Shown here piece after piece: positions 43,460 to 60,426 of a DNA stretch of 64,000 nucleotides (within the stretch, counting starts at the first letter, position 1; the number at the start of each line of letters is the position of its first letter). Source of the stretch: a virus. The stretch lies in the IMG/VR virus record IMGVR_UViG_3300046822_000286; one strand, 5' to 3'. The notes beneath the pieces were generated by a model that saw only the letters and a list, made by a program, of their open reading frames with translations, did no database searches and was not told where the DNA came from. The position numbers were made by a program, and so were the translations under genes.

Positions 43460-44616
43460 ACGAAGTTGCTCTCGTAATCGTTCTGGAAGTAATCCGGGCC
43501 GGGGCCACCATACCTCCACTTCCGGTACTGATAAACCAGTTGCATGATGGCCGTCGAATCGTCCTCGTTCTTCATGTAGCCGATGTCCCGTTCGGCCTCG
43601 GCCACCAGCGAATCGGCAAGCCGCGGGTCGTAATAGATCCCGCCGTCAATCACCTTGTGTCCGGGCCAACGCGCGGCCTCGGCCTTGGCGAGCTTCACGA
43701 CCACGTCGGACCGGATCCCGTTCGGCAGGATGTCGTTCTCCGAGATCAGCGGCGTGGTGGCCTTGATGTAGAAAAACGGGTATGCCGCCACCGAGGTCGG
43801 GCGCGGCCACATTTCCCAGAGTGGAGCTCCAGCTGGATCGGTCGTATGGAATGCCAGTTTGTACGGCATCTGGCTGATGGCGCGGCGGGGGTCGTCGGCG
43901 TCCAACTGCACCTTGGCGGCATTGACGATGAACTGGTACTGCCGGTCCGGGTTCACCATCGTCAGGACCTCTTTGACATCCTGTCCGAGACTGGCGTAGA
44001 CCATCGTGATCTCGTAACTTTGGGTCGCCAGGCTCAGGTACGGCCAGCCTTGGTTGATCAGCATGCGGGTCGCGCTCGTGAATCCGACCGCTGTGACGAA
44101 TGGCGAATTGGAGTTGATCCGGAACTGCCGGCCCGCCATGGATCCGCTGGTGATCGTGACGCCAGAAGTATGGGTCTTGGTGCAAGCCGCCTGGAACGTG
44201 GCGGCCGCAGCGTTGACGGACATGACGAAGACGGCTTCCTCGCCAGCGTTTCCGCCATCGATCGTGACCCAGATCCCTGGCACGATTCCGGTCAGCGCCG
44301 TCGGCTGGAAGTCGATAATGCCGGCCTCGATCGTTGCCGTGAGCAGCGTCGTATTGACCACGTCGTTGAATGGCCAGACGGTTCCCACTCCGGTCACGAC
44401 GTTCGAATTCTGGGTGACCGTGACGGTCCCTGTCGCGTATTGGGCGGGGACGCTGAGGATCCCATAAACGACCAATCCGCTCCAGTTACGGCGCCCCATC
44501 AGCATGCGGATGCTGTCGTTTATGTCCTGCTCGCAGAGCGTCTTATCGTAGCTCGGAAACTTCTTCAGGACGGCATCGACCATACCCCTGAAGTTCTGTT
44601 GTTGTGGAGTCGGCAT
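43456..44616 (-). CDS. virion structural protein (386 aa; adaptor/neck candidate)
   Basis: QYATGTVTVTQNSNVVTGVGTVWP is a motif I associate with phage neck/adaptor-like proteins, but this is an uncertain recollection. Confidence 0.65.
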   Translation of the reverse strand: MPTPQQQNFRGMVDAVLKKFPSYDKTLCEQDINDSIRMLMGRRNWSGLVVYGILSVPAQYATGTVTVTQNSNVVTGVGTVWPFNDVVNTTLLTATIEAGIIDFQPTALTGIVPGIWVTIDGGNAGEEAVFVMSVNAAAATFQAACTKTHTSGVTITSGSMAGRQFRINSNSPFVTAVGFTSATRMLINQGWPYLSLATQSYEITMVYASLGQDVKEVLTMVNPDRQYQFIVNAAKVQLDADDPRRAISQMPYKLAFHTTDPAGAPLWEMWPRPTSVAAYPFFYIKATTPLISENDILPNGIRSDVVVKLAKAEAARWPGHKVIDGGIYYDPRLADSLVAEAERDIGYMKNEDDSTAIMQLVYQYRKWRYGGPGPDYFQNDYESNFV

Positions 44617-44651: not shown

Positions 44652-45302
44652 TTAAAGGAATGCGATGACGGTAGTGGGTTTCGGAGGGCCTGCTTGCGGC
44701 TCGTGTTCGAACTTCCTCGTCCCGTATCCTTGCGCGCGCATCGCCGCAAGGATGGCTTTGACTGAGATCTTTTTGTTGAAAGGCACTTCGACTTCGAACG
44801 GGATAGACTTGGCGGCAAAGCCACCGAAGGCCTCCCGGACGGCAACATACGCAGTCTGCCCATCGAAGCGTAGACCGCCGAACCGATAAAGATATTCGTC
44901 GCCCCCGCCGAACGCCCGAAGTACCTTGATGTAGAATTTGTACTGCTCGCCTTCCAGCAGTTGTGTCTCCGTCAGACCTCGGATGGGAGAGAATCGCTCG
45001 TTTCCGTAGTTGCAGAGTTGCCCGGTTCCGATTTCGCGGACAACGTGATACCCGTACTCTTCTTTTGGAGGCTCGACATACCATGCGATTAGCCAATCGC
45101 AGACTCTGCCGCTCTCCCCCATAACGAGGTCGCCAGGCTTCGGCTTGTCCCATGGCGCGAAATGGACATAGAACCCACCGTTGCGGTCTCGGAAGGCCTC
45201 AGACCCGCTCCTGTAGCCATCGGAGTTCGTCGCCCGGCATAGGACGGATGCCGATGATAATCCACGGACGACGTGCATCAGGATGCGCTCTTTGTCAGTC
45301 AT
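44652..45302 (-). CDS. hypothetical protein (216 aa), last gene of accessory operon
   Basis: Start moved to ATG 45302 (MTDKERILMH), overlapping the upstream stop by 8 nt. Confidence 0.55.
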   Translation of the reverse strand: MTDKERILMHVVRGLSSASVLCRATNSDGYRSGSEAFRDRNGGFYVHFAPWDKPKPGDLVMGESGRVCDWLIAWYVEPPKEEYGYHVVREIGTGQLCNYGNERFSPIRGLTETQLLEGEQYKFYIKVLRAFGGGDEYLYRFGGLRFDGQTAYVAVREAFGGFAAKSIPFEVEVPFNKKISVKAILAAMRAQGYGTRKFEHEPQAGPPKPTTVIAFL

Positions 45303-45996
45303 AGTGTTTAATTTGGATACACGGGCGGCCCGGCCAGCACCAAACGGTAAATCCAGCAGCACGCGCGGATCGGCAGAAATTGACGTCCATCGAGCGACTG
45401 GTTTCATCGTAGTTGAAGAGCCAGCGGAGAGGCTCAGCCTTCTTCAACTCCTTAAAAACGTCGACCTGGATCAGCATGCAGCCGGCCGCAATCGCTGCGC
45501 ATTCAAACGCTTCGGTCTTCGGATGATCCTTCCACGATACCTCCTCGACATCATAGCCGGCGTAGATACTGAGGGCCGCAGAGTCGTCGCCTTCGGTTAT
45601 CGCCCGCCAGACCAGCGGATCTCCGTTATCACGGTGGGTGAGACCTCCGACGATCGGTTTGTCGACCTCGAGGAGCCGCTGAAGAATATCCGGCGGCACG
45701 AGCATGTCGTCGTCCATGAACAGGACGTGAGTTGCGCCTTCCCCCATGGCCTCGCAAATTGCCCGATCGCGCCCCATGCGAATGTTCTCCCGCGGTCCGA
45801 TCGTGTACGGGCGGGCCTTGTACAATGGCGCCTGGATACGAGCCATTGCCATGATGTCCAGCGGCGGGCCGTTCTCTTTCGGCGGAAGGAGTGTCAGGCC
45901 GACCGTCGTCGCCTCCATCCAGAATCGGATTCGGTTGTGGTAGACGATTGGCGGTAGCCCGTGGTAGACCGGCTCGGCAACAAGGACTCTATACAT
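45295..45996 (-). CDS. GT-A fold (GT2-like) glycosyltransferase
   Basis: Start at ATG 45996 (GGAGGA 7 nt upstream). THVLFMDDDMLVP is a DxD motif, and AAGCMLIQVDVFKEL is typical of GT2. Confidence 0.6.
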   Translation of the reverse strand: MYRVLVAEPVYHGLPPIVYHNRIRFWMEATTVGLTLLPPKENGPPLDIMAMARIQAPLYKARPYTIGPRENIRMGRDRAICEAMGEGATHVLFMDDDMLVPPDILQRLLEVDKPIVGGLTHRDNGDPLVWRAITEGDDSAALSIYAGYDVEEVSWKDHPKTEAFECAAIAAGCMLIQVDVFKELKKAEPLRWLFNYDETSRSMDVNFCRSARAAGFTVWCWPGRPCIQIKHYD

Positions 45997-46315
45997 CAGC
46001 GGATCCTCCATGTTTTTCACAGGTCTTGCCGAGGAGGCATTCGCAGGTCCTGAATGTTTCAAGAGTCTCTAGGCTGTTCTTGAACTGAGTACCTATTTTC
46101 TTGAGAAGATCACGGTCTACGTCTGGCTCAAAGATGACATTGATTGAGAAATACGTGCCGTCAGAACGCAGCGCGCATATCTGAAAAGAGCGCTTGAACG
46201 TCGGAGGATAGTAAGTTCCGTCCTCCATGGTATGGCCATATTCGTCGACGCCAGGTCCTAACAGTTTCAGCCAATGCCAACCCGGCTGTTTGATTAAGTC
46301 ATCAATCTTATCCAC
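45989..46315 (-). CDS. hypothetical protein (108 aa)
   Basis: ORF coupled to both neighbours (8-nt overlaps). Confidence 0.55.
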   Translation of the reverse strand: MDKIDDLIKQPGWHWLKLLGPGVDEYGHTMEDGTYYPPTFKRSFQICALRSDGTYFSINVIFEPDVDRDLLKKIGTQFKNSLETLETFRTCECLLGKTCEKHGGSADV

Positions 46316-47357
46316 GGATCACCTCCGCAACTCGCTCGACTTCCGCGTCCGTCATCGCGCTCGAGAGCGGCAGGCAGAGGCCCATGCCGCTCAAGAATCT
46401 GGCGCTCCCGCAGTGCTCGCCCTCCGGCGGGATCGGGAAAAACGGACGCCACTCGATATTCTCCTGCTCGCAGTCCTGAATGATCCGCTGCCGTGCTGGA
46501 ACGCCACCCTTAACGACACCCGCAAATACCCAAGGCGCTGGCATCTCGTCACTGGCGATGCCAGGCAGGTTCCACTCCTCCACACGGCTTGCAGCCTCGT
46601 AATACTGCATGATCTCGTACCGGCGGGCCAGCATCTCGCTAAACCGGGAGAGTTGCGCGCAGAGCACCGCCGCCTGCAGGTCGGTCATCCGCCCGTTGAT
46701 CCCAGTCCGGAGCGGCACGTAACTCTTGTCGGCGATCCCATGGTTGATGATCAGCCGGCATTCCTTGTACAACTCCTCGTCGTCGGTCAGGATCGCGCCG
46801 CCCTCGCCTGCCGTCACGATCTTGTTTGCGTAGAAGGATAAGGTCGAGATCCGCGCCCGTTTGTCGCCGCCTGCCCAGACGTCGCCAACATGGCCACCGA
46901 ACGACTCACTGGCGTCCTCGATGAACGTCCTCGTCGCGTGCGGTAGCGACTCCGGCAGGTGAACGGATCCGTAGCATGGCGCAGATATAACGGTGTCCCA
47001 TGTCACGCCACGATAATCGTGGTTGAGCGGCTGCCACGTCAGCATGTCAGCATCGAGGCATTGCAGTCTCGCACCCGCCAGCCGGACAGCATTATGGACG
47101 GCTGCGAACGTTAGCGCAGGAGTCGCAATGGTGCGGACCGGGCCACCGCCGCTTGTCGCCATCAGCGCGACAACGAGGGCCGTCGTGCCGGACGAACAGC
47201 AGAGCGCGTACCGGCGACCGGTTATTTTACAGAGCAACACCTGCGCCCGCTCCACGAACTGTCCCTGCGAGATCCAACTGTCCGCCATTGCAATCCGCAG
47301 ATTATCCATTTCCTCGAGCCGGAGGTCCGGGCTGGCGATCGGTATTCGCGTCTTCAT
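46308..47357 (-). CDS. DegT/DnrJ/EryC1/StrS-family PLP-dependent sugar aminotransferase
   Basis: Start moved to ATG 47357 (MKTRIPIASPDL; ATGA overlap). CCSSGTTALVVAL and the SFYANKIVTAGEGGAI Lys motif are present. Confidence 0.85.
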   Translation of the reverse strand: MKTRIPIASPDLRLEEMDNLRIAMADSWISQGQFVERAQVLLCKITGRRYALCCSSGTTALVVALMATSGGGPVRTIATPALTFAAVHNAVRLAGARLQCLDADMLTWQPLNHDYRGVTWDTVISAPCYGSVHLPESLPHATRTFIEDASESFGGHVGDVWAGGDKRARISTLSFYANKIVTAGEGGAILTDDEELYKECRLIINHGIADKSYVPLRTGINGRMTDLQAAVLCAQLSRFSEMLARRYEIMQYYEAASRVEEWNLPGIASDEMPAPWVFAGVVKGGVPARQRIIQDCEQENIEWRPFFPIPPEGEHCGSARFLSGMGLCLPLSSAMTDAEVERVAEVIRG

Positions 47358-48382
47358 CGCTTCTCCAATCTGTACATCCACCGGTCCCGGAGGGCGGACC
47401 AGGAATGCCGGACTTCCGCAATCTGGCGATTTTCCGTCGAGTAGCGCTCCATATCGGTCCCTCCGGCCCAGCGGATCTGCTCGGCCAGATGGTATGTATC
47501 GACGTGGCTGGCCAGACAGTGAGGGTTGATCATGCCGGCCGGCTCCTGCTTTCTGACCCCGGTCAGCATTTTGTGTCCCGCCGGCCAGTATTCGTTCATC
47601 GGCTCGGCGTCGGTCGTCAGGACGGGCATCCCGGAAGCCATCGCCTCGAGCGTCACGAGCGCGTGGCCGTCGTACTTCGACGGGTAGATCAGCACGTCGC
47701 CTTGAGTATAGAGATCCTCGCGGTTCATGAACCCGCCGATGTTGAACGTAACGTACGGCGAACGGATCTCGCCAAACCACGGCTGATCGACCTGCGAATT
47801 AATCCGCAATGTCGCGTCCCATGTTCCAGGATCGGCCTTCAGAAAGGCCTCGACAGTCTCACGCGTGCCCTTACGTCCGTTCATGCCTCCAGACCCGGCG
47901 TTGTGAATGAATTGGCGCGCCGGCCCGGACCGTTGCCGAAACTTGAACAGATTGGTGTCGACCGGATACGGCAGGAAGACCTTGTTGTCGAACGGAACCT
48001 CCTGATACGCCTTGAAGCTCGGGCAGATGTAGAGGTCGACGCTCTGATAGGCCGGCAGGTGCGGGTTGAACGACTCCCACATCACGATCAGGATCGTGCG
48101 CATCCCGAGTTCTTTCGCGTAGCGGAACGTGTGATCCCCGAAGCCGGTCTCGATCGAGATCACGGTATCGATGCCGTCGGTCGATTGCCAGGCGGAGAGA
48201 TCATCTTTCTGAACCTCCCACTGGTGCAGGTAGAACTCCTCGCCGTTGGCCCACTCGAGGTGCATCGGCCACCCGATGTCGGGGATGACCAACTGCCGAG
48301 TGATTCCGAGATGTTCCCGCAGGTCGTGGCACATCGTGCCGAGGCCGCGCTGCGATAGATACGAAATGATTCCAGTGGTCAT
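47354..48382 (-). CDS. GT-B glycosyltransferase (GT4/GT1-like)
   Basis: 342 aa. IYPSKYDGHALVTLEAMASGMPVLTTD is the E-x7-E region of retaining GT4 enzymes. Confidence 0.8.
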   Translation of the reverse strand: MTTGIISYLSQRGLGTMCHDLREHLGITRQLVIPDIGWPMHLEWANGEEFYLHQWEVQKDDLSAWQSTDGIDTVISIETGFGDHTFRYAKELGMRTILIVMWESFNPHLPAYQSVDLYICPSFKAYQEVPFDNKVFLPYPVDTNLFKFRQRSGPARQFIHNAGSGGMNGRKGTRETVEAFLKADPGTWDATLRINSQVDQPWFGEIRSPYVTFNIGGFMNREDLYTQGDVLIYPSKYDGHALVTLEAMASGMPVLTTDAEPMNEYWPAGHKMLTGVRKQEPAGMINPHCLASHVDTYHLAEQIRWAGGTDMERYSTENRQIAEVRHSWSALRDRWMYRLEKR

Positions 48383-48720
48383 TAACCCTCCAGGTCTAAT
48401 AGTTCACCGTCTGTCATCCGAGTCCAGTGCTTCGGCTTGTGAGGATCGCGGCGATGGTCAAGATGGATCGTGGTGTGCCCGTAAGGCTCAGAACAGAAAT
48501 ACTTCTCTTCCTGGCTAGGACTCTGAGCGTAGAAAGGACACATGGTCTCGGTGCGCTTAACGAGAGCGATACCGTGCATGTCGATCTCACCGATCTCACC
48601 GATCTCACCGATCTTACCGATCTCATGGATCGCGTGCTGGTATCCCGCATCGAGCAGTTTCCCCTTAATCTCATCGTATGCCCACGGCGAGACCTCCAGC
48701 AGCGCGTACGTGTGGGTCAT
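48382..48720 (-). CDS. hypothetical protein (112 aa) carrying an in-frame (GEI)n repeat
   Basis: IHEIGKIGEIGEIGEIDMHG is encoded by the 9-bp tandem repeat at 48583..48625. Confidence 0.6.
   Translation of the reverse strand: MTHTYALLEVSPWAYDEIKGKLLDAGYQHAIHEIGKIGEIGEIGEIDMHGIALVKRTETMCPFYAQSPSQEEKYFCSEPYGHTTIHLDHRRDPHKPKHWTRMTDGELLDLEG
48583..48625. repeat. 9-bp tandem repeat GATCTCACC x ~4.7 (in frame; each unit contains GATC)
   Basis: The sequence reads gatctcacc gatctcacc gatctcacc gatcttacc gatctca directly. Confidence 0.95.
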
Positions 48721-48944
48721 ACGCGCTCAGGCCACGACCACTGTGACGGGCCCGTGCCGTATTCTGCCCAGTCTTGATGTTGGCCAAGAGGACCGAAAAC
48801 AAAAATCTGGCACCGATTTTCCGCGCTCGGATCCACTGCTCGAATAATCGCGGGTGAGATCTGCGGCGGATACTTGCCATCCGCGCTGCCGGGATGATGG
48901 TAGATCACGATTCTTCCGACGCTTGGTTTCTGCTCCATATCCAC
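48717..48944 (-). CDS. hypothetical small phage protein (75 aa)
   Basis: AAGGAG SD upstream of ATG 48944. VGRIVIYHHPG...PAIIRAV...IFVFG resembles a common SH3-like small phage protein. Confidence 0.6.
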   Translation of the reverse strand: MDMEQKPSVGRIVIYHHPGSADGKYPPQISPAIIRAVDPSAENRCQIFVFGPLGQHQDWAEYGTGPSQWSWPERV

Positions 48945-48946
48945 TC

Positions 48947-48984
48947 CTTAAAAAGGCGGCTCGAACTGACTAAGAACGAGCCGC
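48947..48984 (-). terminator. intrinsic terminator/attenuator inside the accessory operon
   Basis: Minus strand has GCGGCTCG, a 13-nt loop, CGAGCCGC, then C TTTTT, followed immediately by AAGGAG and ATG 48944. Confidence 0.5.
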
Positions 48985-49020
48985 TGAACGAGTTGTGCTA
49001 CACATGCGCAGAGCACCGTT

Positions 49021-50073
49021 CTACGCTACGGATTCGCCCGAAGGCGGATGTCGTGGGAATTCCCTAACTCTGAGATCCTCTGGCCATTCGGACATGTCGC
49101 CGCCCTTCGGATCTCGGATATCTTCAAACCCTTCGTCGATGCAGGTGACATGATCACGGAATCTTCCTTTTGTCGATTCGCGGCAGGCGTATGGCTTCGC
49201 GCCAACCTGCTTCACAAAACATGCGACTCCGGCGGTCTTGCACTGCCTGACGACGAAGCGCGCCCAGTTGATATTGAACGGTCTGGCGTGAGGGCCGGAT
49301 TCTCCTCCAACCACGATCCAGTCCAGCCGGTTATCCGTCTTATCTGAAACTGCGCAGCCGGTGTTACTCGAATACCACTCGCCTTCCAGCGCATCGAGCG
49401 AGTGCCCTATCACTGACAGATTCGTCAGATCGACCAGTTCGAGTGCTGGCTCGTAACTGACCCACCGAACTGCGGCTGGAGTGTCCAGCAGGGCCTGTAC
49501 CCGCCTATTCGCCTGCACCTGATCTTCAACAGAGACCCCTAGCCATACATTCGGTAGTGGCCACGGAAACGGTCCGACATTAGCCGGATCGATGCCGGAC
49601 AGCACGACATGCTCCGCCGGGTGCCCCTTGTATTGAGCGCGTAGCATGCGCATGGACCGTTCCACCGGACTCAGCGCTTCGACCGAATTCGAATAAATCC
49701 GCATCGTCTCCGAACGCTTCGTCAGAATCTGGTACGTGTGGTGAGGTGTCTGCGCCATGATCGCGAACGCCTGATCGATCTGGTCGAATTCAACATCTTT
49801 ATGAAAGAGATCCGACATCGAGTTGACGAACCAACGTTTCGGTGCTTTAACCGTGAGCGGTTCCCTTAGTTTATCCTTGATGAATCGAACAGTTCCGTTC
49901 CATCGCGGACCCTCCGGCCCCATCTCGGTCAGGCCTTCATAGGCGCCGCCAGCGTAATTGAACCGGTGCGCCTGCTGCATCGCATAGCAATGCTGACACC
50001 CGGGCGAAATCATCGTACAGCCGCGGAGGAAGTTCCAGACACGATCGGCCCATTCGATATCGGTTTCGGCCAT
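49021..50073 (-). CDS. phage Gp37/Gp68 family protein (DUF5131)
   Basis: 350 aa. TDIEWADRVWNFLRGCTMISPGCQHCYA is the characteristic N-terminus of this family. Confidence 0.8.
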   Translation of the reverse strand: MAETDIEWADRVWNFLRGCTMISPGCQHCYAMQQAHRFNYAGGAYEGLTEMGPEGPRWNGTVRFIKDKLREPLTVKAPKRWFVNSMSDLFHKDVEFDQIDQAFAIMAQTPHHTYQILTKRSETMRIYSNSVEALSPVERSMRMLRAQYKGHPAEHVVLSGIDPANVGPFPWPLPNVWLGVSVEDQVQANRRVQALLDTPAAVRWVSYEPALELVDLTNLSVIGHSLDALEGEWYSSNTGCAVSDKTDNRLDWIVVGGESGPHARPFNINWARFVVRQCKTAGVACFVKQVGAKPYACRESTKGRFRDHVTCIDEGFEDIRDPKGGDMSEWPEDLRVREFPRHPPSGESVA

Positions 50074-50615
50074 TAGAGTTCCAACTCCGGCGTTTGCGGC
50101 TCCGGGAGATACGCTTCTGGATCACTGCCAAATTCACTGCGGCAGTCGCTACTGCAAAAAAAGAATACCGTCCCTGCGTGTTCAGCCTTGTACGCCGACT
50201 CCGCTCCGACTTCGCTGCCGCATACCGGATCGATCGGCAGTGCCTCCGCCTTCTGCGCAATTGCCGGGCGGTCAGGCATCTTGAGCACGATTACCGGACG
50301 CTTATAGATCTCGTCGATGGCACGGCGCGCCGCCGCCTCGTCGCACGGCGTCATCCGGAAGATCGCACCCGGACCGAGCAGTGTGGACCGTGCTGGCGAT
50401 TCATCGCGCTTCACCGTCGCGCCGGCCTGAGTCCAGCCATGGTCTGTATATTCCGGCTCGGCCAGCACCCATTCACGCTCCGGCAGTGATGGCGTATCGA
50501 CACGGAACATGCAGGCATTGCCGAAATATTCGGTTGTGACGTAGCCGGCGGCTCGAGAATGTCCGTAGACTTCAACGAGCGCCCAGCCTTTAAAGGTCGC
50601 CTGTGACTCTTCCAT
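50073..50615 (-). CDS. phage small-protein domain fused to a C-terminal YHS/TRASH-type metal-binding domain
   Basis: 180 aa. The C-terminus IDPVCGSEVGAESAYKAEHAGTVFFFCSSDCRSEFGSDPEAY fits the YHS pattern. Confidence 0.6.
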   Translation of the reverse strand: MEESQATFKGWALVEVYGHSRAAGYVTTEYFGNACMFRVDTPSLPEREWVLAEPEYTDHGWTQAGATVKRDESPARSTLLGPGAIFRMTPCDEAAARRAIDEIYKRPVIVLKMPDRPAIAQKAEALPIDPVCGSEVGAESAYKAEHAGTVFFFCSSDCRSEFGSDPEAYLPEPQTPELEL

Positions 50616-51072
50616 GCTCTTCCCTCCATTTGAGAACTTTACGGAACGCGCGCCGGCTAGGATCAGGATCGAATTCCTCGTCCATGAGCGTTCTGACGAT
50701 CGGTGAACTAGGTTCGACTTTGCAGACGATGCTGCGCTTGCGGAATCGGATCGCCTGGTCCGTGGCGAAGCGCGTCATGAATTTACCAACCCCGCGTCCG
50801 CGAAAATCGGGATGGACGATCACGAGGAGGGAAACCTCCGGAGAATCCGCGTCGGCCGCCACTAGGCTGGCGTATGCGATCGGCTGTTTCTCAGCCCCGA
50901 CGAGCGCCCACCATTCCGTCACAATCACTGATCCGATAAACGCACTGAAATCGGCCCCGGCGACCGTCGCTAAGAAATCCGCCCGGTTATCGACCGTCTT
51001 GGTCGCCTCGGTTTCGATCACCTGGATCACGCGATCTTCGATCATCATCGAGCCGAGTTCGCGCCCGATCAT
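50590..51072 (-). CDS. GNAT family N-acetyltransferase
   Basis: 160 aa. LLVIVHPDFRGRGVGKFMTRFATDQA is the canonical motif A (R-G-x-G-x-G). Confidence 0.75.
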   Translation of the reverse strand: MIGRELGSMMIEDRVIQVIETEATKTVDNRADFLATVAGADFSAFIGSVIVTEWWALVGAEKQPIAYASLVAADADSPEVSLLVIVHPDFRGRGVGKFMTRFATDQAIRFRKRSIVCKVEPSSPIVRTLMDEEFDPDPSRRAFRKVLKWREEHGRVTGDL

Positions 51073-51641
51073 GGCCGCTCCGCAATCACGACAATATTGA
51101 CGTGCAGGTAGAACGTTTCGACGACCTGCATGCCCATCGCTGCCAGCGCGAGTCCGAGCTTATCTTTCGAAAAGAGTTGATAGTGCCGGTCGAGCGCTGT
51201 CGTGCATTCTCCGTAAATCACGCGATTCGCCGTATCTTCATCGATGTCGCCATCGGACAGCGCCCGATAGATCGCATCGAGCGACGGAACCTGAATCCGG
51301 ATCCGGCCACCGGGCCGCAGGCATTTGGCCCACTGTCCCAGCACGATCTTCCACTCTGTCGGATTGTTCTGGGTGCAGGGAATGTGCTCAAGGATGTCCT
51401 CGGCGAGGATCTCGTCAACCAGCGTGTCGAGCGACCACGGGCCGAGCGCCACCACGTCCACGTGGGTATCCGCAGCGTGATGCGGATCCATATCGACGTT
51501 GATCCAGCGCATTTCTGGCGTGCTCTTGAGGTACTTAGTCCCGCAACCAATGTTCAGTCCAGTCTTCACGGTTGCACCATCCTCGATGTTGTGTTCGCCT
51601 GATCGTTCATAAGTTCTCCAGTTTCCATCCGACACGCACAA
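51069..51641 (-). CDS. class I SAM-dependent methyltransferase
   Basis: GLNIGCGTKYL (motif I), ILEHIP and LRPGGRIRIQVP are present. The start is uncertain: ATG 51641 overlaps the upstream gene by 35 nt, and GTG 51569 is an alternative. Confidence 0.7.
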   Translation of the reverse strand: MCVSDGNWRTYERSGEHNIEDGATVKTGLNIGCGTKYLKSTPEMRWINVDMDPHHAADTHVDVVALGPWSLDTLVDEILAEDILEHIPCTQNNPTEWKIVLGQWAKCLRPGGRIRIQVPSLDAIYRALSDGDIDEDTANRVIYGECTTALDRHYQLFSKDKLGLALAAMGMQVVETFYLHVNIVVIAERP

Positions 51642-53004
51642 AGTCTTCCTCGAGGTAGATGATGTAGCTACCGGGCCGCACTACCCGCCCGAGTTCCTTC
51701 TGGACCTGATTGAAAATGGCCGCGAAACTCGACAGGCACGTCACGGCAATCACAAGATCGAACGACGCGTCCTCGAACGGAAGCGCCGTCGCACTGGCTA
51801 CCCTGAAGTCGAGATCTGGCAGCGATTCGCGGGCCTTATCGATTAGCGCCGGCATGAAGTCGACGCCGATATAACTTTTCGCCAACTGCGCGACGGACTG
51901 ACTCATCCGCCCCCAACCGCAGCCGACATCGAGCACGTCCTTGCCGACCGCATACCGCTTCAGCACCTGCATATGCTGGGCCGTGAATTCGTTGATCCGG
52001 GCTTGCGGGGTCTGCAGGAACGTCGAGCGCGTCGTGCCGTAGGCGGCGATCCGCTCAGTCCAGAATTCCGATGTCGATCTATACTCGAGATCGTCGGCGC
52101 CGGTCAGCAGTACTGTCGGTTCGTTGTCCCGCTTGTATCCGACCGGGTCGCGGATCGGCTTGTAGCCCGGCAACGGCTCTAGACCGCCGTGCTCCTGAAC
52201 ATATTTCCGCACGCCTTCGATGCCGCCGACCGACTCCCACCACGCGTTGCCCTGGTTGCGCACCTCGGCGATCTCGGCGTCGTATTCCGGGTAGTCGTTC
52301 GAGAGAACCTGGTCCTCCTTCAGGTTCAGCAGTTGGACCGGTACCTTGGAGTACATCGCGAACCGCCAGTTTGAGTACGCACTGGCTTCCTGAATGTACG
52401 CGCCCCATCCGGAGATCAGACACGGGTCGTCCGGCCCGGCGCCGGGAGCGCGCGGGAACTTCTCGAATAACAGTCCGCGCTCGCGGATCATGTCCATATT
52501 GATCAGAACGCCGGTGCCGAGGCAGGCAGGATTTATATAAAGACGCCCGTCCTGGAACGGAAAGTTTGGCATGTTGCCGTACCAGTCCGCAGCGGTTAGC
52601 CCCGGAGGCCGCAGGCACGTGCCGCTAACGGCACCTAGCCTTGGCCGCTTGAATTTAGCATTCTCCGTGAGCACGCCGTGCAAGTCAGCAAGCCAGTTGT
52701 CCGGCAGTACGGTGTCGTTGTCGACCTTCGCGACAAACGGCCAAGCAGAATTCATTCGGAAAAACCAGTTCATCGCTGGAGCAAGACCGACATTACGTTC
52801 CGAAAAAAAGACGTTGAAGTTCGCCGTGTTCCGATGCTGGCGCTGTCGTTGGCCGGATAGCCACTCCGCTGTCCCATCGGTAGAACCGTTATCCCAGACG
52901 TAGAGTTCGATCGGTAACCCCGGGCTCAGGCAGATCGACTCCAAAGCCTGCTTGGTGTATCCCAGACGGTTGTACGTGACGAGGAGAACCGGGATCGGCC
53001 TCAT
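51607..53004 (-). CDS. bifunctional GT2 glycosyltransferase / SAM methyltransferase fusion
   Basis: Start moved to ATG 53004 (ATGA overlap). N-terminus PVLLVTYNRLGYTKQALESI...LYVWDNGSTDGTAEWL is GT2-like. C-terminus DVLDVGCGWGRMS...IGVDF...VIAVTCL is a methyltransferase. Confidence 0.75.
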   Translation of the reverse strand: MRPIPVLLVTYNRLGYTKQALESICLSPGLPIELYVWDNGSTDGTAEWLSGQRQRQHRNTANFNVFFSERNVGLAPAMNWFFRMNSAWPFVAKVDNDTVLPDNWLADLHGVLTENAKFKRPRLGAVSGTCLRPPGLTAADWYGNMPNFPFQDGRLYINPACLGTGVLINMDMIRERGLLFEKFPRAPGAGPDDPCLISGWGAYIQEASAYSNWRFAMYSKVPVQLLNLKEDQVLSNDYPEYDAEIAEVRNQGNAWWESVGGIEGVRKYVQEHGGLEPLPGYKPIRDPVGYKRDNEPTVLLTGADDLEYRSTSEFWTERIAAYGTTRSTFLQTPQARINEFTAQHMQVLKRYAVGKDVLDVGCGWGRMSQSVAQLAKSYIGVDFMPALIDKARESLPDLDFRVASATALPFEDASFDLVIAVTCLSSFAAIFNQVQKELGRVVRPGSYIIYLEEDFVRVGWKLENL

Positions 53005-53234
53005 TTCTCCACCTTCTTTGCCGGGATCGCGCTCAGGTCCTTCGGCGATTCCTGCTCTACCTTCTCCGGCACTACACGCTCCAGTTCGAAGATGACGCCA
53101 CCCTTGGAACTCTGCCGCATCGTGACCTTGCCCTTGGTCTTCATGATCTCGATAATGTGGCGGTCGTCCTCGTTCTCCTTCTCCGGTTCCAACTCGTAGG
53201 TAACCGTCCCGTTGATGACCATCGTGTGCTTCAT
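53001..53234 (-). CDS. hypothetical protein (77 aa)
   Basis: Charged small ORF with 4-nt overlaps at both ends. Confidence 0.5.
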   Translation of the reverse strand: MKHTMVINGTVTYELEPEKENEDDRHIIEIMKTKGKVTMRQSSKGGVIFELERVVPEKVEQESPKDLSAIPAKKVEK

Positions 53235-53713
53235 GCTTCACTCCGCTCGGCCAGCGCCAGCCGCCCGAGACCTCCAGTTACCGCTCGCTGGTAGAGCGTT
53301 GTCGGTTTACCTTGGGCGTCCGCGACCTGCATATACGGCATGAAGACTTCATCCGCCTTCGCCATACCGGTCTCCACGAGCGCCAACTGCGCTTGAATCC
53401 ATCGGTAGATCTGCCGCCACGCCGTCCGTTTCGCCTGCTCCAGATCGCGCTGCGGTGTACGTCCGCGTCCATCGCCGCGGATAATCCGATAGATCGGATC
53501 GACGCGCGCCGGCAGTTCGAACGGAATTTCTTCGTTGTTGACCTTCAACACGAAATGCAGGGCGACCGCTTCCCCGTGTTCGTACGTATTCATAATTCGC
53601 GTGGCGCCCATCCGGACGAGGTAGGCCTGGATCTCGGAAATCGTCCGGACAGGATCGATATTAGTCGTGCCCATGTACAGGTCTCGTCGCTTCATATCTT
53701 GACCCCGATCCAC
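53231..53713 (-). CDS. hypothetical conserved phage protein (160 aa)
   Basis: ORF in the operon frame. No enzymatic motif recognised. Confidence 0.55.
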   Translation of the reverse strand: MDRGQDMKRRDLYMGTTNIDPVRTISEIQAYLVRMGATRIMNTYEHGEAVALHFVLKVNNEEIPFELPARVDPIYRIIRGDGRGRTPQRDLEQAKRTAWRQIYRWIQAQLALVETGMAKADEVFMPYMQVADAQGKPTTLYQRAVTGGLGRLALAERSEA

Positions 53714-54285
53714 ATCCCGTTCCGGTTCTCCATCGTGAAATGGACGTACGGTGACAGCAGTTCCTGCGACGTCTCGATGGCGGCCTTGACCCCGACCTCG
53801 CAGAGGCTATCGTGGATCATGACGCACCCGCCGGACTTCACGTGTGGGACATACCGTTCCAAATCTTCCTTTGCGCCTTGATAAGAATGGTCACCGTCGA
53901 TGAACAGCAGTTCGATTTCGTCAGGCAGTATCGGCGAGACGTCCGGGTCGTCCGAACGCATCTCGAGCAATTCGACCCTATTGTCCAATCCGAGTTCTTC
54001 AAGGTTGTGCGCGAAATGCGCAAGGAATCCTGGAGCACCGCCATGGGCCGCAATGAACGGATCGATGCAGTAGAGCTTCCCGAAGCCGATCTCTTCCATC
54101 GCCTTCGCAATCCACATGGCTGATCCGCCGCGGCGCGATCCGATTTCTATCGCATTCTCCGGCCGCACAAGGTGCGTCATCGCGTAAAGGATCAGATAGT
54201 GCGACTTGTCGGTCCAGACGCCATCGTTCGCATCCTCGGTATACCGCAGCATCTGCACTGGAAATTCGAATCGTTTCATAGCCAC
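53692..54285 (-). CDS. class I SAM-dependent methyltransferase (Methyltransf_24/CmcI-like)
   Basis: AIEIGSRRGGSAMWIAKAM...LYCIDPF...LLFIDGDHSYQGAKEDL...GGCVMIHD. Confidence 0.7.
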   Translation of the reverse strand: MAMKRFEFPVQMLRYTEDANDGVWTDKSHYLILYAMTHLVRPENAIEIGSRRGGSAMWIAKAMEEIGFGKLYCIDPFIAAHGGAPGFLAHFAHNLEELGLDNRVELLEMRSDDPDVSPILPDEIELLFIDGDHSYQGAKEDLERYVPHVKSGGCVMIHDSLCEVGVKAAIETSQELLSPYVHFTMENRNGMWIGVKI

Positions 54286-55274
54286 CCCATCTTTCGCTTG
54301 ATCTCTGCGGCCTGATAGTCAGCCGCCGCTAGCCCATACTCCTGCCTGACTTTATGTATCGCGTACTCTCGGATCGTCGCGTAATCCCTGGGCGCGTTCA
54401 GTATCCAATGGACGGCATCCTCGATCTGTTTCGGATTGTAGATGTCGCTAATCTGTAGGTTGCCGAAGAGTTCTCGCTGTATCTCGAGTTCCCCATTCCC
54501 GATACATGGGATTCCTAGCGCCGCGAATGCGATCTGGTCGCGGCCGGCAGCCGCCGCTGGCATCGGGTGGACCGCAAGATACGCCCCGGAGACTTCCCGC
54601 AGCCAATCCGACCAACTATCGTGCGGAATCTCCTTGTCGATCTTGACACCGAGTACCTCCGGTAGTTCCTTATTGCGATCCATGTAGCCCGTCGATCGGT
54701 TCTGATGCCAGAGCGGATGGCCGAGATCTTTCACCGCAAGCAGACCGGCAAGCCCATTTGCCCGGTCGTCGTAGCTCGATCCGAAGAGGATCGGCCGATC
54801 TGCCTTCCGGTCCGGATCCATGGTATATCTCCAGATCGGCGATAGATCGAGGCATGTCCTCCAGCGATAAGACTTGCTGGCCAGTCGCCCCCAGTAGTGG
54901 GTATCGCGGGTATTGTGCGTCAGGAAGAGATCGACCTTGCCGAGCAGTTCGATAAAGCTCTTCATTTCCTCCCACGAGCGCGTCAGCGGCCATCCCGTCT
55001 CGGCCTCCTGAAAGAGCACCACTTTCTTGCCGAGACCCGCCAGCGTATGCAGCGCGTCCATCCAGCGCGGCTCAAAGTCGGCGCGCACCTTCCACATCGT
55101 GGCGAACACGGCATCGCACTCGTCAGCGTACTTCGCGATCTCCAGCGGGGAATAGTGACAGATCGCGCCGAACGCCCGGGCGGCGATCTGATCGTTGCAG
55201 TTTGGCGCACACATCTGATCGATACTGGCGTTCGTCAACCGGACACTTGTCGCTACCCACCTCATAACATCCAC
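54276..55274 (-). CDS. putative glycosyltransferase-like protein (GT-B-like C-terminus), uncertain
   Basis: 332 aa; an alternative start at ATG 55265 gives an ATGA overlap. DQIAFAALGIPCIGNGELEIQRELFG resembles the GT-B donor-binding region. Confidence 0.4.
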   Translation of the reverse strand: MDVMRWVATSVRLTNASIDQMCAPNCNDQIAARAFGAICHYSPLEIAKYADECDAVFATMWKVRADFEPRWMDALHTLAGLGKKVVLFQEAETGWPLTRSWEEMKSFIELLGKVDLFLTHNTRDTHYWGRLASKSYRWRTCLDLSPIWRYTMDPDRKADRPILFGSSYDDRANGLAGLLAVKDLGHPLWHQNRSTGYMDRNKELPEVLGVKIDKEIPHDSWSDWLREVSGAYLAVHPMPAAAAGRDQIAFAALGIPCIGNGELEIQRELFGNLQISDIYNPKQIEDAVHWILNAPRDYATIREYAIHKVRQEYGLAAADYQAAEIKRKMGWL

Positions 55275-55693
55275 TCCGCATCGTCATCTTCGGCCACAGC
55301 CAGCAGTAATCCGCGCATCTGCTCGATCGACAGATTCTCCACGCCATCCCTCGCGATGTCCGTGATGAACGTTTTATGCTCGGGCGTCAGGGCAATCAGA
55401 AAGATCCGGAAGACGCCGAGCGGTTCGAACATTTGCTGCAGCATGAGCGCCACGGCCTGCCGGTGCGTCTCGTTGAGGAAGTCGTACGGTTTAGGTTCGC
55501 CGTGAAGGCGGTCCAGCGCCGGGCGGATACCCTCCTCGCCATTCTTGAGTCCAAGTTCGGTCAGCAGCAGGGCGGCCATCATTGTGCCGGAGATGATCTG
55601 TTCAGGCGCGGCTCCGAACTTCTGCGCGTGGCCGTGAAACACGTCCATCGCCCGCTCCATCGCCCGACCGATCTGCTGCTCGGTGAAGATCAT
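55262..55693 (-). CDS. hypothetical protein (143 aa)
   Basis: Helical ORF coupled to its neighbours. Confidence 0.55.
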   Translation of the reverse strand: MIFTEQQIGRAMERAMDVFHGHAQKFGAAPEQIISGTMMAALLLTELGLKNGEEGIRPALDRLHGEPKPYDFLNETHRQAVALMLQQMFEPLGVFRIFLIALTPEHKTFITDIARDGVENLSIEQMRGLLLAVAEDDDAEWML

Positions 55694-55989
55694 GCCCTTT
55701 TCTTAGGAGGGCGACCTTGCCCGGTACGCGTGGCCGCGCTGTAGATCGCTAGCATCTCCTCGAGCGTGACTTCGTCGGCGATGGTGGGGTGATCTGGGTT
55801 GGCGGCGGCGCGCTGTTCGACATCGCGAATGATCTGCGCAATCCTCTCGAACCGGCGCTCTCGAGACTCAGACTTACCTGTCAGAGATTCAACCTCGCGC
55901 CGAAGTTTCTTAATCGTGTCGACGTGCGTCTCCCGCGTCCCCGGATGCCGGACATTGCAGTACTGGCCCTGTAGAAATCCTGTTCTCAT
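55690..55989 (-). CDS. hypothetical protein (99 aa)
   Basis: Charged coiled-coil-like ORF with 4-nt overlaps. Confidence 0.5.
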   Translation of the reverse strand: MRTGFLQGQYCNVRHPGTRETHVDTIKKLRREVESLTGKSESRERRFERIAQIIRDVEQRAAANPDHPTIADEVTLEEMLAIYSAATRTGQGRPPKKRA

Positions 55990-56216
55990 TCCAATACCCT
56001 CACTCCGCTGAGATCTATTTTTGGCGTCATCTTCGGACGGATGATCGTCGGCCCGATATGCATAAATCGTGGATTACGCGCCAGACCGGAGAACTTGTTC
56101 AAGAGCCGCGTGTAGTCGTCTCCTGATACCAATATCTCTTCCGGCCACCCCTGCTTGGATAGCCATTCATGGAGGGCGACCAATGTCGGCAGCGGCTCAC
56201 TCGGTTTGATTACCAT
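55986..56216 (-). CDS. hypothetical protein (76 aa)
   Basis: ORF in the operon frame, overlapping the upstream stop by 7 nt. Confidence 0.5.
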   Translation of the reverse strand: MVIKPSEPLPTLVALHEWLSKQGWPEEILVSGDDYTRLLNKFSGLARNPRFMHIGPTIIRPKMTPKIDLSGVRVLE

Positions 56217-57133
56217 TGCAGCCTCCTTTCGATTTCGTGTGATATCGCCTGGATCCGGCGATCGTACGTGTGTTGCGCATGGACCAACCGGTACCCGTTC
56301 AGCGCGATCGACCGGCGCACGGCCTCCATCGGCAGGAAGCGTCTGATCAACTCGTGCATCTCGTCAAAATCGTGGTACCAGACGAGGTTCCATTCGTTCC
56401 GGAAGACCTTCTCGATTCCCGGCACGTAGGCCGTCAGGAAGAATGCCCCGCAGGCGAGCGCGAGGTATACCCGGTCGGACCAGTAGCCCGGCACGTCGTT
56501 GACGAAGTTGTCGCCGATCACGATCTTTGAGAAATAGCAGGCCTGGGCGAACTGATTTCCCCAGACCTGCTTTGCCGGCTCTCCCCACTTTTGAAAGTCG
56601 TACTGGCTCAACTCAGCCATCAACCGATGCCGGCGGTCCGTATAGTTCGATCCGATAAAGACGACCTCTAGCCCATTTGCCGATCCGAGATAGATATTGG
56701 ATTCTCGCGGTACGTCATGGAGTTGCGGCACACAGCCCTGATGCAATTCGATGCGCGCGATGTTGTGGCTGGCGTAGAAGCCCTCCTCGTCCGTGCCGTC
56801 AGTCTGGAAGCACAGATCCGATACTTGAGCCAGCGGCTTGTACCATGCCCAGTTCTCAGGATGGCGCATCCAGTCGAACGTCCACCAGATGATCCGCACG
56901 TTCGTCCGGCGCCTGACGAGTTCCAGATCGGACGGCGCGATCTCCGGGGCTTTCGAGATCAGTAGGATTTGAACGCGGTTAGTTTCGATGATCTGGATTA
57001 GCCGCTCGGGATCGAACCATTTTGCCCTGGAAATCCGGAGGCAGTTGTGCCCGTTCCGGTCGAGCGCTGCGGCAATCCAGTTCTCGCAATAGCCGTAGTG
57101 CGCGAATTCGCCGTAGTAGAGGAAAATCGCCAT
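56210..57133 (-). CDS. CgeB-like glycosyltransferase (Glyco_trans_1_2 type), first gene of accessory operon
   Basis: The track start at 57196 is TTG, which lies inside the promoter -35. First ATG is 57133 (MAIFLYYGEF; GGAG upstream). LACGAFFLTAYVPGIEKVFRNEWNLVWYHDFDEMHELIRRFL...HTYDRRIQ. Confidence 0.7.
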   Translation of the reverse strand: MAIFLYYGEFAHYGYCENWIAAALDRNGHNCLRISRAKWFDPERLIQIIETNRVQILLISKAPEIAPSDLELVRRRTNVRIIWWTFDWMRHPENWAWYKPLAQVSDLCFQTDGTDEEGFYASHNIARIELHQGCVPQLHDVPRESNIYLGSANGLEVVFIGSNYTDRRHRLMAELSQYDFQKWGEPAKQVWGNQFAQACYFSKIVIGDNFVNDVPGYWSDRVYLALACGAFFLTAYVPGIEKVFRNEWNLVWYHDFDEMHELIRRFLPMEAVRRSIALNGYRLVHAQHTYDRRIQAISHEIERRLQW

Positions 57134-57167
57134 TAGAGTGACTGCCAACTCCGCGTCATGCCGTCCC

Positions 57168-57209
57168 GTTTTACGTGAACCGGACGAGCATGTCAATTTA
57201 ATTTTTTAA
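57168..57209 (-). promoter_or_regulatory. sigma70-like promoter with UP-like A/T box driving the accessory operon
   Basis: Minus strand reads TTAAAAAATTAAATTG box (57209..57194), TTGACA (57196..57191), 17 nt, TAAAAC (57173..57168). Confidence 0.55.
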
Positions 57210-57225
57210 GGTGAGTATTGACGGA

Positions 57226-57267
57226 CGAAGAAAACCTCACGGCGGCGTATACCGTCACCGTGAGGTT
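57226..57267 (-). terminator. rho-independent terminator closing the head-gene transcription unit
   Basis: Minus strand has AACCTCACGG (57267..57258), a 15-nt loop, CCGTGAGGTT (57242..57233), running into TTTTCTTC. Confidence 0.6.
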
Positions 57268-57290
57268 CGATGGTTATCGAACGATCCGTC

Positions 57291-57536
57291 TTACGAGTTG
57301 TCCGCGGCGATCTGGATGATCCCCGTCAGCGATCCTCCGCTGACGAGTGTTACCGTCTTGCCCGAAACCGTTAATCCGAAGCTCGCATTCGTTGTCGGAG
57401 TGAAATCCGCGGCAATGATCGCCGCGAACTGGCTCACGAACGTATCGTTGTTGTTCCACGTGATGTTGCAGATCTCCGTGGCGGTCCGGCCCCAATAGTC
57501 CGTATACCGTGTTGCATTCTCTACTGCTGCTGGCAT
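57291..57536 (-). CDS. small head-associated protein (81 aa; decoration/cement candidate)
   Basis: Second ORF after the capsid gene. The function is inferred from position only. Confidence 0.55.
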   Translation of the reverse strand: MPAAVENATRYTDYWGRTATEICNITWNNNDTFVSQFAAIIAADFTPTTNASFGLTVSGKTVTLVSGGSLTGIIQIAADNS

Positions 57537-60300: not shown

Positions 60301-60343
60301 TTAAGAAATTAAATTGACCGATCGGGATAAAATGAGATAGGCT
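60301..60343 (+). promoter_or_regulatory. plus-strand promoter candidate with A/T box
   Basis: TTAAGAAATTAAATTG (60301..60316), TTGACC (60314..60319), 18 nt, TAGGCT (60338..60343). Confidence 0.35.
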
Positions 60344-60347
60344 GAAA

Positions 60348-60426
60348 GTGTCTAGTCCTTCAACCGCTCTCCCCGAGCGGTACTCCAACTAAAACGGCTG
60401 GCCCGGCAAGGCTGGCCGTTTTTTTT
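60348..60426 (+). ncRNA. candidate ~80-nt plus-strand sRNA (two hairpins plus U8), antisense orientation to the structural operon
   Basis: Hairpin ACCGCTC-TCCCC-GAGCGGT (60363..60381), then ACGGCUGGCC-CGGCAA-GGCUGGCCGU (60394..60419), then T8. The promoter candidate lies just upstream. Confidence 0.3.
60394..60426 (+). terminator. intrinsic terminator, stronger on the plus strand (A4-hairpin-T8; possibly bidirectional)
   Basis: A 10-bp stem that includes two G-U pairs on the plus-strand RNA; these become A-C mismatches on the minus-strand RNA. T8 follows on the plus strand but only T4 on the minus strand. Confidence 0.55.

Follow-up and report, generated by a model that had tools for sequence, protein, structure and literature searches.

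What does a tailed phage do with a block of sugar enzymes set between its head genes and its tail genes? The question is raised by the window analysed here, a 64,000-nt stretch of the IMG/VR record IMGVR_UViG_3300046822_000286 with all genes on the minus strand, in which an island of 20 genes and about 12.5 kb (44652-57196) encodes glycosyltransferases (GTs), methyltransferases (MTs), an aminotransferase and an acetyltransferase. The phage is uncultivated and comes from metagenome assemblies, and the evidence base consists of sequence, homology and predicted structures. A reading made earlier from the sequence alone had described a self-contained operon of 21 translationally coupled genes, supplied by host keto-sugar pools and possibly acting on the virion. 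Our analysis shows a genuine island with a core that recurs in unrelated phages, and it points, tentatively, to glycosylation of virion surface proteins with a methylated amino-sugar glycan made by the phage as the most likely function.

The GT, MT, GNAT and DegT assignments of the sequence-only reading were borne out, mostly by Pfam matches and for two GTs by AlphaFold2 models compared with Foldseek. Five GTs were found in the island, three via Pfam and two via their predicted fold. The CgeB-like enzyme matched PF13524 over residues 191-318 with 83.7 bits against a cut-off of 25, and one of its homologues bears the JGI label 'spore maturation protein CgeB'. The 329-aa protein formerly listed as a possible GT-B has no Pfam, PHROG or NCBIfam match, and its model (pLDDT 88.1, pTM 0.89) shows a GT-B fold, for which Foldseek returned the GT4 enzymes GlgM, HepE and BshA with E values of about 2e-9 and TM-scores of 0.69-0.73; MshA was also matched. 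Its family was confined to phage-like contigs among the contexts inspected, and the gene adjoins that of the CgeB-like GT in four other phage lineages (L014, L019, L020 and L079). Single-sequence locus scans with this gene (54276-55274) and with the structural gene at 43456-44616 gave no matches.

The fifth enzyme, a minimal GT-A of 233 aa noted earlier for its DxD motif, stayed below the Pfam threshold (23.7 versus 27 bits). Its residues D95-D96-D97 are invariant in 8 sequences, with D95 and D97 invariant in 23, and the corresponding model (pLDDT 87.7) has a GT-A fold. Foldseek gave an E value of 1e-10 to LH3 and a TM-score of 0.72 to models of minimal phage GT-A proteins; the closest solved folds include the collagen-glycosylating LH3 and COLGALT1, and also Mnn9, the virus-encoded STIV A197 and Mimivirus R699. 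A candidate relationship to the GT2 genes of about 220 aa in L019 and L014, as a shared priming GT-A, was rejected after profile comparison, which returned generic similarity around the DxD motif only.

Three or four S-adenosylmethionine (SAM)-dependent MT domains accompany these GTs. One is fused to the GT2 domain in the window clade; in L014, L019, L020 and L079 the GT2 and the MT are separate, adjoining genes, and the fusion appears from this distribution to have arisen within the window clade. The CmcI/TylF-like enzyme, with homologues in L019 and L079, is a probable sugar O-methyltransferase, and the Methyltransf_23 gene, scoring at threshold, is kept in L008, L012 and L014. Conservation extends to the GT4 (L008, L012, L014, L019 and L079) and to the GNAT protein (L008, L012 and L079).

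The sugar on which these enzymes would act can be narrowed down from the aminotransferase and a dehydratase. The best PDB matches of the DegT-family protein are the perosamine synthetases 3bn1 and 3dr4 (E 1.6e-35, versus 1e-22 for WbpE), its closest solved relative being the perosamine synthetase of Caulobacter, and among NCBIfam models the LegC family and PseC score best. LegC enzymes use GDP-linked sugars as substrates. The stretch SFYANK is presumably the PLP-lysine motif of the family. The sequence-only reading had recognized no 4,6-dehydratase and had therefore invoked host keto-sugar pools; this part of it fell, as the same phage encodes a 331-aa homologue of GDP-mannose 4,6-dehydratase (GMD) about 0.5 kb past the window end. 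The gene (L016:5587-6582, equivalent to window positions 64480-65475) lies on contig SRR26076559_72864, which is 100% identical to the window across 13.6 kb; flanked by terminase-side genes and by the portal gene, it is physically apart from the island. The protein matched PDB 1rpn over its full length (E 2e-90) and scored 314 bits against TIGR01472, for which the equivalog cut-off is 415, with dTDP-glucose dehydratase next at 95 bits. A GMD of the phage's own gives the pathway more autonomy than the sequence-only reading had allowed it. Phages with related cassettes carry GMD or Fcl-like genes within their islands, L012 having an Fcl-like GDP-sugar reductase, and GMD and the DegT family occur together in the cassettes of L014, L020 and L079.

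Owing to this GMD and to a DegT protein nearest to GDP-perosamine synthase, the predicted product is a GDP-mannose-derived, N-acylated and O-methylated 4-amino-6-deoxyhexose. The putative route runs from GMD through DegT and GNAT to O-methylation. The phage GMD would make GDP-4-keto-6-deoxymannose, which DegT would aminate at C4 to a perosamine-type 4-amino-4,6-dideoxyhexose, and the GNAT protein would then N-acylate the amino group. From there, the five soluble GTs (GT-A, two GT-B, GT4 and GT2) would build a cytoplasmic oligosaccharide, with sugars O-methylated by the three or four SAM-dependent domains, the CmcI/TylF-like MT among them. The last and least certain step would transfer the glycan to the major capsid protein (MCP), to the 185-aa and 81-aa proteins encoded beside it or to the tailspikes, giving the particle a virus-specified glycan coat. 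GNAT is the sole acyltransferase in this scheme, as no hexapeptide-repeat acyltransferase was matched in any open reading frame (ORF) scanned; the GDP-perosamine N-acetyltransferases PerB and WbdR are hexapeptide-repeat enzymes with a left-handed beta-helix.

An argument for a common function comes from other phages. Seventy-one homologues of the CgeB-like GT were found, and the contexts of representatives with identities as low as 38% revealed at least four more phage lineages that carry the core enzymes side by side, namely two GT-B, a GT2, an MT, a GT4 and DegT, usually with GMD and in some cases also with the MT24 and GNAT genes, and no similarity to the portal, MCP or tail proteins of the window phage was detectable in any of them. 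The cassette follows the capsid gene in L019 and the tail-fibre genes in L014, precedes the large terminase gene in L079 and follows RuvC/RecA/SbcCD-like genes in L020; counting the window clade, where it comes after the head genes, four of five lineages have it embedded in virion or packaging genes or adjoining them. Since six or seven core enzymes stay together in similar order across structurally unrelated lineages, we regard them as one functional unit, which has moved horizontally among phages. No comparable cassette was found among 50,697 GenBank phage records by megablast of the island or by tblastn of the CgeB-like GT and the GT2-MT protein. In L079, a gene for a sigma-70-family factor (L079:7929-8513) lies about 0.5 kb upstream of the cassette, with one 163-aa ORF in between, a hint that this phage may itself control transcription of its glycan genes.

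Recurrence in independent assemblies shows that the island is no assembly artefact. Its sequence is identical in two different Logan runs (SRR26074820 and SRR26076559), the same proteins are encoded on a 107,420-bp JGI contig, and syntenic islands with proteins 33-79% identical occur in two IMG/VR contigs (MCP 86% identical) and in an NCBI/Logan pair (MCP about 80%), which disposes of the assembly chimera that the sequence-only reading had named as a risk. Megablast of the island against isolated phages found no close relative.

That the block is inserted between head and tail genes, as proposed earlier, could be confirmed by searching IMG/VR, JGI metagenomes and GTDB genomes with an alignment of MCP sequences, which yielded more than 60 further relatives with MCP identities of 26-88%. 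Wherever the downstream sequence sufficed, none of them had a large island. In the more distant ones (MCP 26-65%), the next structural gene is reached within 1-3 kb of the MCP gene, the island-less order being MCP, often a homologue of the 185-aa protein, a protein of about 80-130 aa and then the homologue of 43456-44616. Seven of these loci have the minimal GT-A as their sole GT at the junction, either alone (L023 and L055), with one MT (L022, L029 and L040) or directly after the next structural gene (L024 and L025). The ancestral junction of the family thus held zero or one GT, sometimes with one MT. As distant relatives have either nothing or a minimal GT-A with or without one MT at this place, the window clade has enlarged a small, old GT slot into an island of 10-12.5 kb by taking up the cassette that circulates in unrelated phages as well, and the minimal GT-A is the ancestral resident of the head-tail junction. 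Codon usage is compatible with later acquisition of the island, GC content at third codon positions (GC3) being 0.70 in island genes versus 0.77 in the flanking structural genes (Mann-Whitney p = 0.004).

Table 1. Island genes, boundary signals and neighbouring genes in the window, in the direction of transcription.
Feature	Coordinates	Strand	Basis or remark
Portal gene	62248-63954	-	phrog_156
MCP gene	58166-59152	-	phrog_9953, E 2.5e-29
Conserved 185-aa protein gene	57597-58154	-	upstream of terminator
Conserved 81-aa protein gene	57291-57536	-	upstream of terminator
Intrinsic-terminator hairpin and U tract closing the head genes	57226-57268	-	minimum free energy -24.9 kcal/mol, z -4.7
Sigma-70-like promoter	57168-57209	-	A/T box, TTGACA, 17 nt, TAAAAC; unique in window
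CgeB-like GT-B glycosyltransferase, core cassette gene	56210-57133	-	PF13524 Glyco_trans_1_2
Three small ORFs (76, 99, 143 aa), variable among relatives	55262-56216	-	no Pfam or PHROG match
GT-B-fold glycosyltransferase, core cassette gene, 329 aa	54276-55265	-	predicted structure
SAM methyltransferase, Methyltransf_24/CmcI-TylF-like	53692-54279	-	PF13578 80.8 bits, PF04989 29.7 bits
Two ORFs (154 aa, phrog_17260; 77 aa)	53001-53695	-	
GT2 and class-I SAM methyltransferase (Methyltransf_11/25) fusion, core	51607-53004	-	PF00535 55.6 bits, PF08241 69.2 bits
SAM methyltransferase, Methyltransf_23	51069-51641	-	27.8 bits, at threshold
GNAT acetyltransferase, proposed amino-sugar N-acyltransferase	50590-51072	-	PF00583 27.7 bits; PF13508
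YHS-domain protein	50073-50615	-	PF04945 43 bits
DUF5131 protein	49021-50073	-	PF07505 256 bits
Internal terminator-like hairpin GCGGCTCG/CGAGCCGC and U tract	48950-48984	-	-20.6 kcal/mol, z -3.2
Two small ORFs (75 aa, phrog_2293; 112 aa)	48382-48944	-	
GT4 (GT-B) glycosyltransferase, core	47354-48382	-	PF13692 42 bits, PF00534 36 bits
DegT-family PLP sugar aminotransferase, core	46308-47357	-	PF01041 (DegT_DnrJ_EryC1) 184 bits
108-aa ORF	45989-46315	-	conserved in L008
Minimal GT-A glycosyltransferase, 233 aa	45295-45996	-	invariant DDD and predicted fold
216-aa ORF	44652-45302	-	no counterpart in L008 or L012
First structural gene downstream of island	43456-44616	-	1-3 kb after MCP in island-less relatives

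Within the island, translational coupling held up, with almost every pair of neighbouring genes overlapping by 1-35 nt (for instance by 8 nt between the minimal GT-A gene and the last gene, which starts with an ATG at 45302), and the gene count fell from 21 to 20. The single true intergenic gap measures 76 nt and contains the internal hairpin and its U tract; L008 has a GC hairpin and a T run at the equivalent place. At the upstream boundary, both the terminator and the promoter that follows it were found as described earlier. L008 and L012, the two other available members of the window clade, have a hairpin with a U tract at the same site (-20.9 and -24.4 kcal/mol) with different stem sequences, so that the structure is conserved and the sequence is not. 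The promoter pattern, for which 0.02 chance matches would be expected in the window, occurs once; AAATTAAATTGAC and CGTAAAAC are the same in L008, the 17-nt spacer between them having diverged, and the element is partly retained in L012. A simple promoter scan of the window missed this site because its -10 element ends in C, and support for it comes from its conservation in relatives and not from the scan. A second exact copy of the 13-mer AAATTAAATTGAC, comprising the A/T box and the -35 element, lies on the opposite strand at 60306-60318, between 60426-61061 and the scaffold gene, and may mark an antisense or divergent promoter.

At the 3' end of the island, the 35-nt gap to the tail-side gene holds no hairpin, and island transcripts therefore probably continue into the tail genes. 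Judged as a moron, the island thus has a conserved upstream terminator and promoter, no 3' hairpin and the internal hairpin at 48950-48984. In such an arrangement, the terminator would close very highly expressed head genes, and the host-type promoter would restart transcription of enzyme and tail genes at a lower level. The description as self-contained had to be given up: GMD lies outside, a 3' terminator is missing, the internal hairpin intervenes, and about nine of the genes could not be given a function. In addition, the YHS and DUF5131 genes are replaceable. They are present in the window and in L008, and because L012 has a second CgeB-like GT and an Fcl-like short-chain dehydrogenase/reductase in their place, they are probably variable-slot cargo outside the sugar pathway. 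DUF5131 is included in a resource on the radical-SAM superfamily (PMC9477430). Among the three small variable ORFs, just the 143-aa protein has a homologue, in L012; the 75-aa phrog_2293 protein is 79% identical in L008. The 112-aa ORF (48382-48720, minus strand), which has no homologue in L008 or L012, encodes a perfect tandem peptide repeat of GEIGEIGEIGEI.

In the direction of transcription, the island is preceded by the genes for the portal, a probable scaffold, the MCP and the 185-aa and 81-aa proteins and followed by structural and tailspike genes, those from 44616 downward encoding, among others, phrog_399 structural proteins and pectate-lyase-fold tailspikes. The MCP is only 23-27% identical to its tblastn matches in isolated phages (Mx8, Mx9, BUCT555 and Mwe-JY13), and the trio of MCP, 185-aa and 81-aa proteins is kept across the phage family. 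In L012 (GCA_040384245.1), at L012:7623-8569, the MCP gene is in two pieces (aa 1-172 and about 173-328), split by an insert of about 950 bp that contains an HNH endonuclease ORF and is probably a self-splicing intron or a similar mobile element. The label 'decoration' protein for the 185-aa product was dropped as a positional guess, PHROG and PDB searches having been empty even with a 10-sequence profile. In L030, a tandem array (L030:1177-3407) contains the 185-aa protein gene in three paralogous copies and that of the small protein (about 82 aa) in two, which suggests that these genes encode a variable component of the head surface.

To what, then, would the glycan be attached? No transmembrane segment was detected in the island proteins (19-residue Kyte-Doolittle windows reached a maximum of 1.92, with one or two per protein at 1.6 or above), and by hydropathy and Pfam the island thus encodes neither a flippase nor a polymerase, and no ligase or polyprenyl-phosphate priming transferase either. 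Equally, scanning the window ORFs gave no Pfam match to a C5-methyltransferase, a TET/JBP dioxygenase or a nucleotide hydroxymethylase, no DNA-hypermodification enzyme stood among the precomputed Pfam hits covering 7 kb past the window, and the scanned ORFs included no integrase. A search of 185,579 species genomes gave just two matches, both on short contigs of metagenome-assembled genomes (MAGs) and not in chromosomal prophages, which argues against lysogenic conversion. A single minimal GT-A is held at the junction between MCP and structural gene in several relatives, which we count in favour of a virion target. Taken together, the missing membrane and DNA-modification enzymes, the lack of any sign of lysogeny, the position of the island, the structural neighbours of the GT-A and the analogies discussed below favour virion proteins as acceptors. 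A more specific version, in which the cassette autonomously builds a methylated N-acyl-perosamine virion glycan with the minimal GT-A as protein-directed priming enzyme, seems possible but rather doubtful.

Several observations weigh against a virion target or against the predicted sugar. No acceptor feature tracked island presence, whether sequons, MCP C-termini or MCP loops. The four N-x-S/T sequons of the 81-aa protein (4.9 per 100 aa, with about 1.6 expected) were considered as acceptor evidence and rejected, two being kept in L008 and none in the homologues of GT-bearing relatives; island-bearing MCPs have a loop insertion of three residues (NGT) and a somewhat longer C-terminus, but both proved uninformative, as the C-termini of 27 relatives show no division by GT status. 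Foldseek aligned the GT-A to its neighbours with a high rmsd, and the GT-A fold is a generic one. The sugar assignment uses sub-threshold equivalog scores, 314 versus 415 bits for gmd and a DegT score below every NCBIfam equivalog cut-off, and all GDP-perosamine N-acetyltransferases known to us are left-handed beta-helix proteins, not GNAT enzymes. In L020 the cassette lies beside recombination genes, and the most distant homologue of the CgeB-like GT, with 40% identity across half its length, belongs to a bacterial Wzy_C/heptosyltransferase locus, all other inspected contexts being phage-like. About 76 kb of the genome has been seen, and some contigs of the phage and its relatives reach 101-110 kb. 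Finally, soluble GTs may use lipid-linked intermediates at the inner membrane face, with export by the host, so that a host glycan could be the target despite the lack of membrane proteins. Virion glycosylation, the target that the sequence-only reading had found most attractive, keeps its place as a plausible leading hypothesis.

This last point leads to the possibility that the GTs and MTs modify lipid-linked O-antigen, exopolysaccharide or capsule intermediates of the infected cell, either blocking superinfection or stopping progeny from sticking to receptor-bearing debris. Surface polysaccharide would be the receptor, given at least two tailspikes with a pectate-lyase fold; perosamine-type sugars are typical of O-antigens, the GT families have an LPS/O-antigen ancestry that is echoed by the distant homologue in the Wzy_C/heptosyltransferase locus, and the island has its own host-type promoter in the manner of a moron. 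The same idea has been raised for 24 'LPS' genes of the cyanophage P-SSM2 (PMC1079782). We nevertheless consider such remodelling, though a serious alternative, rather unlikely, as the island has no membrane protein, flippase, polymerase or priming transferase, no integrase was found in the window ORFs and no prophage copy in the 185,579 genomes, the island sits in the late structural region with readthrough into tail genes, and in the wider family one GT is closely packed between the head genes and the structural gene that follows. Another possibility is that there is no single pathway: accessory genes might have accreted at a recombination hot spot and serve several targets, with GNAT acting on a protein, for example, DUF5131 and YHS on something else, and part of the set making a glycan. 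The nine genes lacking an assignable function, the coming and going of YHS/DUF5131, MT24 and several small ORFs among close relatives, the internal terminator-like hairpin that divides the island and its GC3 below that of the flanks would all fit. Against this stand the tight overlaps between genes and the core of six or seven enzymes that is intact across lineages without shared structural genes, which make a mere accretion improbable. Least credible is hypermodification of DNA, with the GTs glycosylating modified phage bases to evade restriction, as in T-even phages or in clusters of C5-methyltransferase, 5mYOX and GT genes. LPS-like phage GTs do glycosylate DNA, and such clusters can adjoin structural genes, but they need a C5-methyltransferase with a 5mYOX/TET enzyme or a dNMP hydroxymethylase (10.1101/2023.12.21.572611). 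In the window ORFs scanned neither a C5-methyltransferase, a TET/JBP enzyme nor a dCMP/dUMP hydroxymethylase was found, and the island MTs are small-molecule class-I types, not DNA methyltransferases. Five GTs with an amino-sugar pathway and O-methyltransferases also exceed any DNA-glycosylation system we know of. Heavy investment in anti-restriction, in the form of a 4823-aa DarB-like protein with an Eco57I-type methylase domain, speaks for this account, which we hold to be very improbable all the same.

In that giant ORF (14021-28492, minus strand), which lies in the virion-gene block, histidine-phosphatase and HATPase_c domains occur together with an Eco57I-type N6-adenine methylase and an SNF2 helicase domain; it resembles the DarB-like polyvalent anti-restriction proteins, which are injected with the DNA. 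Three tailspike-like proteins (31880-33571, 38314-40008 and 40012-41727, minus strand) share an N-terminal anchor of about 45-90 aa, and two of the three have a pectate-lyase/rhamnogalacturonase-like fold, which implies several polysaccharide receptors or depolymerase specificities. The sole GTDB relatives (L010 and L011) are short contigs in Acidobacteriota MAGs, one of them Terracidiphilus, and Acidobacteriota are tentatively proposed as hosts. Near the window start, coordinate offsets suggest that two Logan contigs, independent of each other and 64,673 and 75,633 bp long, stop at about position 451 (stretch 451-620), next to an AT-rich, promoter-like intergenic sequence; this may be a genome end or a terminal repeat. 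A 50-nt exact search of IMG/VR for the window start gave no match, and a candidate PAPS-reductase-type PP-loop assignment for the partial ORF 1-375 (minus strand), which had no Pfam match, was not used.

Phage and virus glycosylation as such is already known; the cassette, the two phage-associated GT families, the GDP-perosamine branch and their spread are undescribed in the literature and records searched. To our knowledge, phage virion glycosylation has been shown only in a few mycobacteriophages, where virion glycans shield the particles from antibodies, and autonomous glycan synthesis, by a virus with both a sugar-nucleotide pathway and GTs, otherwise characterizes the giant viruses of eukaryotes. 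The island brings the same complete logic of dehydratase, aminotransferase, acyltransferase, methyltransferases and five GTs to a tailed phage of 76-107 kb, and a core travelling between structurally unrelated lineages provides a defined gene set for metagenome surveys. If virion proteins are the target, the glycans could influence particle stability, sticking to soil or peat organic matter and the way in which host defences or the depolymerases of the phage recognize the particle; if the glycan is also built autonomously, the system would be a bacteriophage counterpart of giant-virus glycosylation and a new, widespread layer of virion-surface diversity. A host-envelope target would instead mean that a seemingly virulent phage carries a superinfection-exclusion system of unusual size. 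With either target, two GT families are new and seemingly phage-associated, and the GDP-perosamine branch is directly testable in vitro.

Among known systems, the 'LPS' gene clusters of cyanophages such as P-SSM2 (PMC1079782) are of unproven function in cyanophages themselves. Lysogenic-conversion modules (gtrABC, Oac) involve membrane proteins and temperate phages, neither of which was found for the window phage. With the bacterial GDP-perosamine pathway (GMD, Per and PerB/WbdR in Caulobacter, E. coli O157 and Vibrio cholerae O1), the phage shares a GMD homologue and a Per-like aminotransferase; it differs in scoring under the equivalog cut-offs, in having a GNAT protein instead of a hexapeptide-repeat enzyme and in an island without Wzx, Wzy or ABC exporter, ligase and priming transferase. 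Closer in setting are the mycobacteriophages Che8, Corndog and Myrna, for which Freeman et al. reportedly described virion glycosylation in 2023. These mycobacteriophages have two to four GTs, whereas the window phage has five, together with an amino-sugar branch, several methyltransferases and GMD, and its host is probably Gram-negative, the evidence for Acidobacteriota being weak. tblastn of the CgeB-like GT and the GT2-MT protein against the 50,697 phage records gave weak partial matches, none of them in a mycobacteriophage. The likeness to the mycobacteriophage systems, as cited in PMC12619734 and PMC11256854, lies in phage-encoded GTs, a tailed particle and a capsid or tail glycan, the latter proposed here.

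Two eukaryotic viruses resemble the predicted system more closely in their chemistry. PBCV-1 encodes a multidomain protein with GT-A and methyltransferase parts (A064R) along with GMD (A118R) and GMER (A295L) (PMC5408694). It shares with the window phage a viral GMD, GTs that are soluble and cytoplasmic and lack signal and membrane segments, and a GT-methyltransferase fusion, which in the phage joins a GT2 to Methyltransf_11, and the methylated deoxy-sugars on its major capsid protein resemble the sugars predicted here; its genes, however, are scattered, its N-linked glycans occupy non-canonical sites and it has no amino-sugar branch. The fibril cluster of Mimivirus comprises a dehydratase (R141), an aminotransferase (L136), an N-acetyltransferase/GT (L142), further GTs (L137-L140) and a methyltransferase (R132), and its product on the virion surface is 2-O-methyl-N-acetyl-viosamine, a methylated and N-acetylated 4-amino-4,6-dideoxyhexose (PMC10117803). 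That viosamine derives from UDP-glucose in a giant eukaryotic virus, whereas the dehydratase of the bacteriophage, with its genome of about 76-107 kb, is of the GDP-mannose type, for which reason a manno-configured, perosamine-like sugar is predicted. In enzymatic logic, both would follow the same course, from a 4,6-dehydratase through a C4 aminotransferase to an N-acetyltransferase, joined by an O-methyltransferase and several GTs.

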